Origin: a virus | UHGV virus genome: UHGV-0047541 | Strand: one strand, 5' to 3' | DNA: 35,471 nucleotides | Shown: one piece after another, positions 2,920 to 26,588 of the stretch | Layout of the letters: each line of letters begins with the position of its first letter | Numbering within the stretch: position 1 is the first letter of the stretch | The notes under the pieces: generated by a model | What the model was told of the DNA's origin: nothing | The model's input: only the letters and a program-made list of their open reading frames with translations | Databases searched by the model: none | Made by a program: the position numbers and the translations under genes

Positions 2920-3323
2920 TTTCCCGCAGAAACAGGCTCTGCAGGCCCGGCGTCTTCTGTCTGCTCAGGAGCATTATTCACAACAAACTCAGACATACCG
3001 GACAGACGCATTACCACATTTTCAGCCTGAGCAATTGCCTCTGTGGGCCAGGTGGTAAGCACTTCCTGCTCAATCTGTTTAACGGCTTCATCCATGGACG
3101 GCAGCTTTGTCTTCTGCGGATGGTTATGCCACAGGGACATCGCTACCAGAAAAGCGCCGGTTCTGACGAGATCTTCCACGCTCACCAGCAGGTTATCGCC
3201 ACCTCCCGCCCGTTCTGCCTGTCGTTTCAGCAGGGCGAGATGCTCAATACGCTGCAGGGCTGACAGTTCAGAAAGCGTGACACTTACGCCGTTATATTCA
3301 AATGATTCAGTTTTCAGGAACAT
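2901..3323 (-). CDS. G: tail assembly chaperone G
   Basis: 140 aa, MFLKTESFEYNGVSVTLSELSALQRIEHLALLKRQ...AGKCSTVS, near-identical to recalled lambda gpG. Confidence 0.9.
   Translation of the reverse strand: MFLKTESFEYNGVSVTLSELSALQRIEHLALLKRQAERAGGGDNLLVSVEDLVRTGAFLVAMSLWHNHPQKTKLPSMDEAVKQIEQEVLTTWPTEAIAQAENVVMRLSGMSEFVVNNAPEQTEDAGPAEPVSAGKCSTVS
2919..2925 (-). other. programmed -1 ribosomal frameshift slippery site G GGA AAG in G frame
   Basis: Plus strand 2919-2925 is ctttccc, i.e. GGGAAAG on the minus strand, phased as G-GGA-AAG in the gpG reading frame a few codons before the G stop. Confidence 0.8.
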
Positions 3324-3338
3324 CGCTGACTCTCCGGA

Positions 3339-4079
3339 TTAACTGTCGGTGACGGTGATTTCTGCAACCGCAGCAAGTTCACCATTACCGGATACGACCG
3401 GAATGTTGACCTTACCTGCAGCAACGCCGTTCACGGTGATGGTCATACCACTGACCGACACGGTGGCTTTTGTTTTATCCGCTGACACCGCACGGAAGCT
3501 CTTGTCGGTTGCGCCCTCCGGCTGGAATGCCACGGTCAGCGTGATGCTCTTCCCTTTCACCACCGAGGTGCTGGCAGGCGTCACGGTCATGCCGGTTGCC
3601 GCTGTTACCGTGCTGCGATCTTCAGCCATCGACGGACGGCCCACATTGGTGACCTTCACTGTGCGGGTGATCACTTCCTTCGCCGTCACCGCCTTACCGA
3701 TACTGCTGACCCAGCCACGGAACACATCGACCGTGCCGTTCGGGAAGCGGATTTTATAGGCACGGGTATCACCTTCATTAAACCACGCCAGCAGCGCCTG
3801 CTGACCCTGCTCTCCGGGCATCCACGCCAGCGTGAAGCTGGTATCTCCGGCGGATTTCTGCCCCTGCCCGGTCGCAGTCCAGTCTGCATCTTCATCATCG
3901 AGATAGCTGTCGTCATAGGACTCAGCGGTCAGTTCGCCGGGCGTCAGGTCTTTAACTTTTGCCAGACGCGACCAGTCAACGTCTGAAAGCGGATTCGCAT
4001 AAGGGTCACCGCTTCCCTTATAAACCCACAGGGTGGTCCCGGCACCTTTCACCGGCATTACAGGATTTGGTACAGGCAT
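3339..4079 (-). CDS. V: major tail tube protein V with C-terminal Ig-like (Big_2) domain
   Basis: ORF 3339-4109; the lambda V start [27 protein letters not shown] is the internal Met at 4079. Confidence 0.9.
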
Positions 4080-18780: not shown

Positions 18781-18855
<75 letters not shown>

Positions 18856-18858
18856 ATA

Positions 18859-18934
<76 letters not shown>

Positions 18935-18936
18935 AC

Positions 18937-19013
18937 TGGACCGCCACCGGAGACTCGAACCTCGCACACTCAACTTAAAGGGTTGATGCTCTTCCCTGAT
19001 GAGCTAGTGGCGG
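18937..19013 (-). tRNA. atypical tRNA-like gene (anticodon loop CCUUUAA, putative UUU/Lys, C at position 33; possible pseudo-tRNA)
   Basis: 77 nt with 7-bp acceptor stem CCGCCAC/GTGGCGG, D and anticodon stems, TTCGAGT T-loop, encoded CCA; non-canonical C33 and T-stem mismatch. Confidence 0.5.
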
Positions 19014-19014
19014 T

Positions 19015-19090
19015 TGGTGGCCCTTGCTGGATTTGAACCAGCGACCTGGCGATTATGAGTCGCTCGCTCTCACCACTGAGCTAAAGGGCC
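19015..19090 (-). tRNA. tRNA with CAU anticodon (ileX/ileZ-like tRNA-Ile2, formally Met)
   Basis: 76 nt, GGCCCTTTAGCTCAGTGGTGAGAGCGAGCGACTCATAATCGCCAGGTCGCTGGTTCAAATCCAGCAAGGGCCACCA; close to recalled E. coli ileX. Confidence 0.8.
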
Positions 19091-25058: not shown

Positions 25059-25552
25059 TAAGCCCCCACGTAATTCCCTGACAGATACCACTCTTCACCC
25101 GATGCAGCGCGCTTGCTGCTTTTCCGTAAGCACCGCTCACGACGCGCCAGAAAATTGTTTCGTTCTGGCTGGGAGTGGCTTTCACGGAATGCCGCCATCC
25201 ACACGGTTGCAGCACGACGAAATAAGCCCCTGGACTCCAGTTCTTCCGCCTGGCGGGTCAGGCACAAAATCACCCGTGGATCGTTAGTGCCGACATAGAA
25301 ATTGCGCACAGGTCTGGTTTCACGAACTGGTTGTAGTTCCGGCTCCTGCGCTCTCTCAGTCAGGCGCGGGAAATGTCTGCGTGTATCCCCTTCGCAACGG
25401 TGAGCCACACGCCCACTCTGACGTAACTTGCTTGCTGACTGCAGAACGCGCTGCCGTGAGTAACCTGCAAAAGCATCCGCAATGTCTCCGGAAGTACACC
25501 CCGGATGGGCTTCAATGTATTTCTGAACTTCATTCAAAAGACTCATGATCAC
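25058..25552 (-). CDS. hypothetical protein (basic, possible DNA-binding)
   Basis: 164-aa ORF, coupled to flanking genes. Confidence 0.5.
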   Translation of the reverse strand: MIMSLLNEVQKYIEAHPGCTSGDIADAFAGYSRQRVLQSASKLRQSGRVAHRCEGDTRRHFPRLTERAQEPELQPVRETRPVRNFYVGTNDPRVILCLTRQAEELESRGLFRRAATVWMAAFRESHSQPERNNFLARRERCLRKSSKRAASGEEWYLSGNYVGA

Positions 25553-26367
25553 CCCCTGAATCCTGCCGGGATCTGGCTGTAGTCCACGTTGTCGTAACTG
25601 GCTTTGAAGTACGGGTCCTCGCGTCTGGCTGCAGATACCGCAGGAACTTCCCAGGATTCTTCGAAATGACGATCCGGACCAAAGAACGTGACAGCCTGTT
25701 TCACAAATTGTGTGCCGCTGTTACCCATCGCAGATACCCAGCACGAGTAGCGTTTCACACCTTCCAGCATGGTTTCGGGGTTTACCCCCTCATTCAAACG
25801 GGCTTTCCAGGCTTTGAAGGCTGCTGATTTTGAATTGCCACCAGCACGTTTGGGGTATGCCAGCCATGCCTGCTCAAACTCCGGAGAGTATTCCGGTCGG
25901 TTTGAACGAACTCGCACAGACTCATCAGCAGATTCACCAACAGCTATTGGTTCATTGACTGGTTCTTTGACTGGTTCAAAAGAGTGACTGGTTCTGGGTG
26001 AATCTCCTGCACTACCCCCTGGTGCAACTCCTGCACTACCTGGTGAATTTGCTGCACCAGATAGTGAATTATTTGCACTACCCCCTAGTGAATCTCCTGC
26101 ACCATCCAGATGAAGGAGATAGATATTACTTGAGTTACCTTTTTCACCTTTCCGGGTGACTTTTTTTACCAGCCCGGACTCACAAAGGGCCGCAATATGA
26201 TTCATCACAGAACGTTTGCTAATCTCGCACTGGTCAGCAATATGCTGGTAGCTGGGCCAGCACTCACCCTGATCGCTGGCATTATCAGCCAGCTTGATCA
26301 GAACCAGTTTTCGCAATGGATTACCCACTCGAATTTTCATCGCTTTAACCATCAGCTCCATACTCAT
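25549..26367 (-). CDS. replication initiation protein (N-terminal HTH, low-complexity linker, conserved phage C-terminal domain); lambda O analogue by position
   Basis: 272 aa; WPSYQHIADQCEISKRSVMNHIAALCESGLV HTH; linker SGAANSPGSAGVAPGGSAGDSP encoded by DNA repeats; C-terminal EFEQAWLAYPKRAGG..AAFKAWKARL. Confidence 0.6.
   Translation of the reverse strand: MSMELMVKAMKIRVGNPLRKLVLIKLADNASDQGECWPSYQHIADQCEISKRSVMNHIAALCESGLVKKVTRKGEKGNSSNIYLLHLDGAGDSLGGSANNSLSGAANSPGSAGVAPGGSAGDSPRTSHSFEPVKEPVNEPIAVGESADESVRVRSNRPEYSPEFEQAWLAYPKRAGGNSKSAAFKAWKARLNEGVNPETMLEGVKRYSCWVSAMGNSGTQFVKQAVTFFGPDRHFEESWEVPAVSAARREDPYFKASYDNVDYSQIPAGFRG
25940..26110. repeat. iteron-like direct repeats inside the replication gene (candidate ori)
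   Basis: Three copies of TGACTGGTTC (25956, 25968, 25985) followed by about five imperfect 20-24 bp repeats of the GTGAATCTCCTGCAC family (25998-26103). Confidence 0.5.
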
Positions 26368-26588
26368 GCTGCACCTCCGAGATGCTTCATGTTTTTTCCG
26401 GAGCGAAAGGCTATAAGCGGCATACTGACGCGGTAATTACGACCCAGCGGTTCACAAATCACCTTCTGACATTCACGGTCCACCAGGCTAACACGTAGAA
26501 CATGCCCTGCAGACGTGGTGTACCACTGACCGGGGCGAGGACAACGGAAAGTCTGATTGGTAAATCGTTTGAAAATATTCCGGATCAT
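26364..26588 (-). CDS. hypothetical small protein
   Basis: 74-aa ORF with overlapping start/stop coupling. Confidence 0.4.
   Translation of the reverse strand: MIRNIFKRFTNQTFRCPRPGQWYTTSAGHVLRVSLVDRECQKVICEPLGRNYRVSMPLIAFRSGKNMKHLGGAA

Follow-up and report, generated by a model that had tools for sequence, protein, structure and literature searches.

Previous work on lambdoid phages places the iterons, the repeats of the replication origin, inside the initiator gene in lambda, P22 and L (PMC8022706, PMC7466680), and the iteron number is four in lambda and six in Shiga toxin (Stx) phages (PMC7466680, PMC8022706). In the lambda-type Stx phages studied so far, toxin output depends on phage DNA replication (PMC7466680). 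For the lambdoid replication modules known as O-only or Eru6 type, the literature that we searched offers a classification by proteins only: the paper on the Eru6 type classifies an HTH_36 protein without mention of an origin or of iterons (PMC8951638), and in the literature on SfV orf39, on ST64B and on iterons we found no description of the origin discussed here.

We analyzed such a module in the virus genome UHGV-0047541, a lambdoid prophage of Escherichia coli. The window is the whole stretch of 35,471 nucleotides (nt; 35.5 kb), to which coordinates refer unless another locus is named. Our comparisons make it likely that the segment 25944-26102, within the linker-coding part of the prophage's own initiator gene (25549-26367, minus strand, 272 amino acids), is the replication origin. 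The principle is classical, a lambda-like origin in the initiator gene; the unexplained feature is an adjoining array of decamers, GAACCAGTCA, which would be a possible new variant if its function were shown.

Repeats in the linker-coding part of the initiator gene

The first-pass annotation had noted iteron-like direct repeats in this part of the window, and they were recovered. Tandem Repeats Finder reports an array of period 24 with 4.6 copies at 25998-26102 and a second array, of period 12, at 25948-25978; a repeat search found TGACTGGTTCT three times, at 25956-25966, 25968-25978 and 25985-25995. The exact decamer GAACCAGTCA is present in three copies in the window, all in this region (25956-25994). 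On the coding (minus) strand, the segment 25998-26102 holds five units of 21-24 base pairs (bp) with the common core GTGCA-N5-TKCAC, more broadly written GTG[C/A]A-N5-T[G/T]CAC. A pattern search located the cores of iteron 1 (GTGCAGGAGATTCAC, 26088-26102), iteron 2 (GTGCAAATAATTCAC, 26064-26078) and iteron 3 (GTGCAGCAAATTCAC, 26043-26057); iteron 4 follows at 26022-26036 (GTGCAGGAGTTGCAC), where the half-sites form a perfect dyad, and iteron 5 at 25998-26012, again GTGCAGGAGATTCAC. From iteron 1 to iteron 5 the cores are spaced by 24, 21, 21 and 24 bp. GTGCA and TKCAC are mutually inverted half-sites, and each unit is therefore an imperfect dyad. The core GTGCA-N5-TKCAC is absent from the rest of the window, the mean expectation from shuffling is 0.26, and none of 100 dinucleotide-preserving shuffles came to six matches or to the number observed; since five sites are found only here against 0.26 expected, a chance origin of the sites is excluded.

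The gene that carries these sites, an open reading frame (ORF) at 25549-26367 on the minus strand, encodes a protein that matches PHROG 270 ('replication initiation protein', 1.8e-87) and, with residues 17-67, the Pfam family HTH_36 (PF13730; 1.6e-11, 44.3 bits against a cut-off of 25). DnaD_N (PF21984) stays below its gathering threshold (24.3 bits against 27). The Pfam matches at E <= 0.01 comprise only HTH_36, DnaD_N, B-block_TFIIIC and HTH_20, and Phage_rep_O (PF04492), the lambda O family, is not among them. NCBIfam holds no family for the protein, and a sequence search of the PDB with the whole protein gave no meaningful match. The C-terminal half (amino acids 146-249) matches PHROG 1701, 'DnaD-like helicase loader' (2e-32), and PHROG 9327, 'primosomal protein'.

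We modeled the protein with AlphaFold and a 33-sequence alignment; the mean predicted local distance difference test score (pLDDT) of a single-sequence run was 39. Residues 1-88, encoded at 26104-26367 on the minus strand, form a predicted winged-helix domain with a pLDDT of 74-94 and the order H17-29, H40-47, H51-64, E67-73, E79-85, in which the recognition helix spans approximately amino acids 51-64 (SKRSVMNHIAAL) and the wing approximately 67-85. Residues 91-157 have a pLDDT below 50 and are predicted to be a disordered linker. A helical C-terminal domain follows with moderate confidence (pLDDT 58-77; amino acids ~155-272, 25549-25905, minus strand). Foldseek against the PDB returned generic winged-helix proteins only, including the DnaD N-domain 2v79, all with E > 0.02, and for this reason we claim no specific structural relative. 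The iteron cores encode amino acids 89-124, and the peptide from the repeat region reads DGAGDSLGGSANNSLSGAANSPGSAGVAPGGSAGDSP, then RTSHSFEPVKEPVNEP. That the repeats lie inside the linker-coding part of an initiator gene, as the first-pass annotation had it, is thus borne out by the ORF and by the low pLDDT of the linker.

Iterons and DNA-binding domains among relatives

In relatives found by tblastn, the same N-domain is joined to several unrelated C-domains and partner genes. An N-domain of the same type is followed in Min27 by a Toprim protein with intein-type domains, and in ZF40 and BUCT709 by DnaB; AsXd-1 has the C-domain of the window gene, and then a DnaC-like gene plus DnaB. In the Min27 gene 'P' (L001, 3887-6397) the Toprim domain is interrupted by Hint and LAGLIDADG domains, which suggests an intein-containing replication protein.

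All relatives that we examined carry a repeat array of their own at the identical place, between the wing and a shared motif to which the decamers belong. Both halves of the dyad change together between lineages, giving GGGCA-N5-TGCCC in Min27, GTGAY-N5-GTCAC in Vibrio phage D67, TGCCA-N5-TGGCA in Klebsiella phage KpnBHU6, and GTGTA-N5-TACAC, TGTAGGC-N5-GCCTACA and GTGAA-N5-TTCAC in the loci L126, L113 and L086, respectively. Across ~150 genes, taken without correction for shared ancestry, the type of half-site varies in step with the sequence of the recognition helix: the helix SKRSVMNH goes with GTGCA/TKCAC, SKRSVMRH with GTGAC/GTCAC, SK[ST]AVRxH with TGCCR/YGGCA, and GRSTVKVH with GGGCA/TGCCC. 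As a separate observation on the spacers between iterons (e.g. 26013-26021 and 26079-26087 in the window), nearly all lineages in the alignment have either C(C/T)A-GGGGG-T or, alternatively, C(C/T)A-CCCCC-T between the last two iterons, so that the G5/C5 tract is retained but flips strand between lineages.

The sites keep to one place and are indifferent to reading frame. GTGMA-type sites were mapped in 91 distinct genes: 408 lie no more than 220 nt upstream of the shared motif and a single one elsewhere in 53.8 kb. Forty-one of the 408 are in another reading frame, where they give VQEIHQ instead of SAGDSP; in Shewanella prophages a frame shift affects the reading of the entire origin (PLVNLLHPEPVTLEPV) but leaves its DNA motifs unaltered, and in locus L116 sites also occur in flipped orientation. 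The linker peptides are wholly different between lineages (GSAGDS, PMPPKS, PSDKMS) while the geometry is constant. This pattern indicates that selection acts on the DNA and not on the linker peptide. We also noted two loci, in Erwinia tracheiphila (L180) and Pseudomonas bharatica (L149), in which a shifted frame runs through the origin and a stop codon falls inside the decamer element while the DNA motifs are intact; their initiator genes are probably pseudogenes in decaying prophages.

Iteron number varies among genes that are 97-99% identical. We counted approximately one iteron in a gene on a 1.15-kb metagenome contig (P0042), where repeat collapse is possible, two in a gene present on 64 contigs including one of 5.2 Mb (P0030), five in the window gene, eight in cdtI and in a gene on a 5-Mb contig (P0009), and nine in P0001; decamers number two to four. 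It could be argued from such variation, which is what slippage would give, and from the fact that the region codes for a low-complexity, predicted disordered segment, that the repeats arose as a side effect of selection for flexibility in a Gly/Ser/Ala/Pro linker and that the DNA as such has no function. We regard this as hardly credible. Slippage would not keep the DNA motif in other frames, where it gives hydrophobic peptides (VVQEIHQ, PLVNLLH), nor would it account for the dyad symmetry, for the joint change of both halves between lineages, or for half-sites that follow the recognition helix; and the peptides GSAGDS, PMPPKS and PSDKMS differ fully while the geometry of the sites stays the same.

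Recombinants, like the half-sites, favor the iteron reading. In one gene, verified at the DNA level (P0067/L216), the N-domain part and the GGGCA iterons share 98.8% identity with Min27 and the remainder shares 95.5% with the window gene, with the crossover inside the decamer element. From the structure of this recombinant it follows that the iterons travel with the N-domain and not with the C-domain. Two further genes, P0071 and P0072, display the same pattern at the protein level with a Klebsiella-type N-domain. The first-pass annotation had likened the embedded iterons to those of lambda gene O and had made the likeness depend on conservation of the repeats as DNA in homologs. Off-frame sites, lineage arrays and the recombinant attest to that conservation, and the dyads, the helix-tracking half-sites, frame independence, co-inheritance and copy-number variation uphold the comparison.

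Dyads that bind the initiator need not be an origin. Plasmid Rep proteins (pPS10, F, R6K) act as repressors when they bind inverted repeats as dimers. By analogy, the sites could serve autoregulation, as a roadblock or operator, or copy control by handcuffing, with the true origin elsewhere in the phage; it fits this proposal that the region adjoining the sites is not strongly AT-rich. No promoter-like site was found in 25700-26500, a result that we count on both sides of the question. We consider the proposal improbable, because the sites lie in the middle of the gene and not at a promoter, because intragenic iterons are the origin in every lambdoid phage that has been studied (PMC8022706, PMC7466680), and because three to nine phased sites with an invariant flanking element at a fixed distance suit an origin better than an operator. 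The case against an origin elsewhere rests on precedent and geometry, and did not include a window-wide scan for other iteron-like arrays.

The conserved decamer element

The first-pass annotation had grouped the decamers with the iteron-like repeats. They are not a further set of iterons specific to one lineage: the decamers (TGACTGGTTC copies) form part of a motif common to all lineages, a family-wide element of 36 nt that is conserved at synonymous sites and across reading frames. In the window the element, CAGAACCAGTCACTCTTTTGAACCAGTCAAAGAACC, occupies 25961-25996 on the minus strand and coincides with a trough in guanine plus cytosine (GC) content; iteron 5 directly adjoins it, as the last iteron does in all aligned relatives. 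Decamer 1 (25985-25994) is read in frame +1, within R-T-S-H, whereas decamers 2 (25968-25977, E-P-V-K) and 3 (25956-25965, E-P-V-N) are read in frame 0. A degenerate decamer 4, GAACCAATAG, follows at 25944-25953, and beyond the decamers there is a weak iteron-like site, GTGAATCTGCTGATG, at 25923-25937, which is indicated by three inverted-repeat pairs and is of uncertain relevance; all are on the minus strand.

Two samples document the extent of conservation. First, a scan of viral contigs for AGAACCAGTCACTCTTTNGAACCAGTCA matched at least 120 contigs, and 113 of 120 matches lie inside an ORF with a recognizable N-terminal start of the initiator gene, the other seven being in ORFs without such a start. 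Secondly, we collected 80 prophage loci from bacterial assemblies, one genome per species, in hosts that include Pseudomonas, Enterobacter, Xenorhabdus, Aeromonas, Shewanella, Aliivibrio, Marinomonas, Avibacterium and Marinobacter; these loci were chosen by two N-domain peptide patterns only, because circularity had to be avoided. At least one exact GAACCAGTCA was found in 71 of the 80. In 52 non-redundant genes drawn from the N-domain-selected loci and from phages, the mean identity of the element to its consensus, CAGAACCAGTCACTCTTTTGAACCAGTCAATGAACC, is 0.90, and the last iteron adjoins the element without gap variation in all 52 aligned genes. The element is conserved across prophages of gammaproteobacteria, among them those of Escherichia, Salmonella, Klebsiella, Pseudomonas, Vibrio, Aliivibrio, Shewanella, Aeromonas, Marinomonas, Pasteurellaceae and Stenotrophomonas, whichever helicase system the C-domain serves.

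Codon usage bears on the level at which the element is conserved. The top-codon fraction is 0.96 in the element, where every Arg is encoded by the rare codon AGA, compared with 0.53 in equally conserved degenerate residues of the N-domain. Moreover, the DNA of the element is kept despite changes of frame, with the peptides HPEPVTLEPV in Shewanella (L194/195/197), RTSHRTSQLEPV in Aliivibrio (L192/203/205) and HPEPVSFEPV in L179/L187. It has to be considered that the element persists as a protein motif (RTSHSFEPVxEP, a contact for a host factor) or as a joint at which N- and C-modules recombine, insofar as most members retain the peptide RTSHSFEPV, the crossover of the verified recombinant lies inside the element, and the boundary between N- and C-domain falls there in all architectures seen. 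We find this rather unlikely as the explanation for the conservation of GAACCAGTCA. A protein motif leaves unaccounted for the top-codon fraction with AGA in every Arg case, the identical decamer in two frames of one gene, and the retention of the DNA across frames, and a patch of homology should decay like neighboring synonymous sites (0.53) across Shewanella, Pseudomonas, Pasteurellaceae and Escherichia. Serving as a recombination joint is, for its part, compatible with a role in the origin.

The element is also the GC minimum of the family, 0.39-0.41 overall, at +10 to +40 nt past the last iteron; in Pseudomonas prophage genes it has a GC content of 0.41-0.50 against gene averages of 0.47-0.62. 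In the window, the decamer region 25944-25995 has a GC content of 0.404 and the whole gene 0.499. The first-pass annotation had instead pointed to an AT-rich stretch at 26103-26160 (minus strand), and this stretch is indeed mildly AT-rich (GC 0.414). As a counterpart of the AT-rich region of lambda it fails, because it lies upstream of the iterons in gene orientation, the reverse of the order in lambda, codes for the folded wing and displays the shallower GC minimum across the family. Within it, at 26144-26169 on the plus strand and thus antisense to the initiator gene, lies a terminator-like hairpin, TCACCTTTCCGGGTGA then CTTTTTTTAC; terminator-like sites number two in the region against 0.6 expected, and the hairpin may be due to chance.

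Among distant N-domains (29-35% identity) the plan of dyad iterons followed by direct repeats of 10-12 nt is kept, but the sequence is not. PotUPM1 and CUB19 have GCAGCAGCTGC-type iterons and then four GAACCGTCA-like repeats with a period of 10-12 nt, Vibrio phage 252E42.2 has five GTGAC-N5-GTCAC sites and then TCCTAACAnTAn repeats, and PF430-3 has iterons, an AT-rich tract and then two copies of GAAATTGGAGCC.

Known signals did not match the decamer element. By eye, none of DnaA boxes, IHF sites, GATC sites and LexA boxes fits it; Rfam holds no family for it and gave only a chance microRNA match (E 0.066); and a literature search for the literal strings GAACCAGTCA and TGACTGGTTC returned, among the matches listed, only unrelated eukaryotic papers. 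No hairpin is expected in the element, because its repeats are direct and not inverted. We tentatively suggest, as one possibility, that the GAACCAGTCA array is a sequence-specific element for strand opening or helicase entry, a phage counterpart of the oriC 13-mers and DnaA-trios or of the RK2 13-mers, and that the invariant portion of the N-domain would likely read it, perhaps as single-stranded DNA. The N-domain, with its nearly invariant first ~48 residues, is favored as the reader because it is the only protein part that always accompanies the element. We also considered the 74-amino-acid ORF immediately upstream of the initiator gene (26364-26588, minus strand; PHROG 1153), which overlaps the initiator start by ATGA and is confined to close relatives (ST64B, cdtI), and rejected it as a universal reader of the element, since tblastn matched it only in ST64B among 88 related loci.

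Proposed mechanism, gene context and known systems

Features known from lambda-type origins are found at this locus. There are five repeated sites where at least three of ~15-24 bp inside the initiator ORF would be expected, their internal dyad symmetry is fit for a dimeric binder, they lie in the linker segment between the DNA-binding N-domain and the C-domain, and their sequence co-varies with the DNA-binding domain (~150 genes, uncorrected for shared ancestry). An AT-rich unwinding region next to the last iteron is a less clear match: downstream of this iteron the window has a local GC minimum of 0.40, in a region that is much less AT-rich than that of lambda and is conserved in sequence instead.

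By analogy with lambda (PMC7466680, PMC8022706, and general knowledge of the O-some), we propose that dimers of the N-terminal winged-helix domain would bind the five sites, one recognition helix to each half-site, with the half-sites 10 bp apart. The sites recur every 21-24 bp, about two helical turns, and the bound dimers would build up an O-some-like nucleoprotein complex. The complex would destabilize the neighboring decamer region, the positional equivalent of the AT-rich region of lambda on the downstream side of the iterons with respect to the gene, and the C-terminal DnaD/DnaT-like domain would bring in the host DnaB helicase. Host DnaB is presumed because the phage encodes no loader or helicase gene of its own; relatives use their own enzymes. 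A disordered linker tolerates nearly any peptide, and DNA signals can therefore be written into its coding sequence. N-domain, iterons and decamer element would travel as one module, while the C-domain, presumed to recruit the helicase and to be exchangeable between phages, could be swapped to suit different helicase systems.

Our interpretation should be read with some caution, as several points weigh against it. The literature searched contains no experiment on initiator binding, unwinding or origin activity for this module in any phage, and according to a 2025 survey it is not understood how O-only lambdoid phages replicate (PMC12315714). The association between recognition helix and half-site may owe part of its strength to shared ancestry, and some of the copy-number variants come from short-read assemblies, which may collapse repeats, although the two-, five- and eight-copy forms also occur in multi-megabase contigs. 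Genes of the P0040/L218 type (3001-3744), present in at least two E. coli assemblies, lack iteron 5 and the whole decamer element, through a deletion that joins iteron 4 to the weak site GTGAATCTGCTGATG; prophages of this type may be natural origin-defective prophages. The decamer region, with a GC content of 0.40, is mildly AT-rich, far below the AT-rich tract of lambda, and AT-richness does not explain conservation of the exact sequence. Finally, the helicase-recruiting role of the C-domain rests on PHROG names only, with no Pfam or PDB sequence match.

The minus strand carries, in this order, a cro-like helix-turn-helix gene, cII (CP76), rha/ash, the 74-amino-acid ORF, the initiator gene, perC, dam, a gene with a LexA DNA-binding domain, and rusA; a Pfam scan of neighboring ORFs found no helicase or loader gene after the initiator. 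The early operons are divergent, with the change of strand at about 28.5 kb. A Rha-family gene and then an HTH_36 gene, downstream of cI/cro/cII and without helicase or loader, is what characterizes the Eru6/O-only module. Judged by gene content, the initiator is the only replication gene of the early-right operon, and the module is of the O-only, Eru6 type. The initiator gene shares 98-99% identity with the 'replication protein' genes of cdtI, mEp460, SfV and several Stx2c/Stx2a phages, and 98.5% with that of the Eru6 reference Stx2a_WGPS2; ST64B sb42 has 87% protein identity to the initiator, and the early region of the window is closest to that of mEp460. Elsewhere in the window, four tRNA genes stand head to tail at 18781-19090 on the minus strand (Gly-TCC, Thr-TGT, Lys-TTT, Met-CAT); lambdoid and Stx-type prophages often have a tRNA cluster of this type in their late-regulatory region.

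Of 5,426 complete E. coli genomes, 897 contain at least 80% of the initiator gene, with no annotation beyond 'helix-turn-helix domain-containing protein', and the module is also carried by Stx-, Cdt- and serotype-converting phages (Stx2c, Stx2a_WGPS2, cdtI, SfV). In E. coli K-12 records (e.g. H127) only the first 76 nt of the query, the 3' end of the gene, match, in a gene annotated 'phage replication protein O' beside yfdN (PerC family), which points to a related initiator, identical at its C-terminal end, in a prophage resident in K-12. Plasmid records with the module are mostly circular phage-like molecules of 38-54 kb. These circles are in keeping with extrachromosomal replication; they are no proof of origin function, since a small plasmid of the gene alone was not found. 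Ten circular 'plasmid' records of 28-104 kb from Arsenophonus nasoniae carry this initiator type, one of which (L214, paNv_CAN10) has GTGAC-type iterons and GAATCAGTCA/GAACCAGTCA, and single circles of 38-54 kb occur in E. coli, Salmonella, Klebsiella, Shewanella, Pasteurella and Microbulbifer; such records may be phage-plasmids or excised phage genomes.

A located origin gives defined targets for electrophoretic mobility shift assays, footprinting and origin cloning, and the role of the short conserved DNA element is directly testable by synonymous recoding. The table of helix variants against half-site variants might be used to derive a code of specificity for winged-helix proteins of this family. 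The locus also illustrates clearly how signals in the DNA constrain the sequence of a gene, which is relevant to recoding and annotating such genes.

Of the systems described, the lambda origin in gene O, together with those of P22 (gene 18), L (gene 18), 933W and P27, is nearest in design. There, as in the window, the origin lies in the linker-coding part of the initiator gene, several ~19-bp sites with internal dyads recur every ~20-24 bp, iteron sequence and N-domain specificity vary between phages, iteron number varies, and the iterons come first along the gene, ahead of a region of lower stability (in the window, a presumed one). Three differences stand out: the N-domain of the window initiator is HTH_36, with Phage_rep_O not among its matches; the module has no P-type loader or helicase gene; and in place of the strongly AT-rich tract of lambda there are GAACCAGTCA direct repeats, ~60% AT and conserved across bacterial orders, which are known from sequence alone. 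Among the O-only/Eru6 modules (mEp460, LLS, ST64B, SfV, cdtI, Stx2a_WGPS2) the window is a member with the same order of rha, small ORF, HTH_36 gene, perC and dam.

In the Bacillus phage SPP1, oriL lies in gene 38, and the replisome organizer G38P is a winged-helix protein with binding repeats in its own gene and a C-terminal hand-over to helicase and loader. SPP1 and DnaD-like initiators resemble the window initiator in this plan, and a weak DnaD_N match, 2v79 among the Foldseek matches and the PHROG name 'DnaD-like helicase loader' are in keeping with it; repeats and hosts are unrelated, however, and homology is unproven. In the origins of iteron plasmids and in oriC, an array of binding sites stands beside a short array of direct repeats at fixed spacing; at these repeats the duplex opens, and single-stranded DNA there is accessible to the initiator. 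The same juxtaposition of a binding-site array and adjoining direct repeats, found in RK2 oriV/TrfA, pPS10 RepA, F RepE, R6K pi and the oriC 13-mers/DnaA-trios, recurs in the window (for general reviews see PMC4980987, PMC5043065). The plasmid iterons, however, are direct repeats to which monomers bind, in most cases outside the rep gene, whereas in the window the sites are dyads inside the gene; neither Pfam nor Foldseek revealed similarity of the initiator to Rep_3 or WH1-WH2 proteins. If the strand-opening reading is true, the decamer array would be a phage equivalent of the 13-mers and DnaA-trios of oriC or of the 13-mers of RK2.

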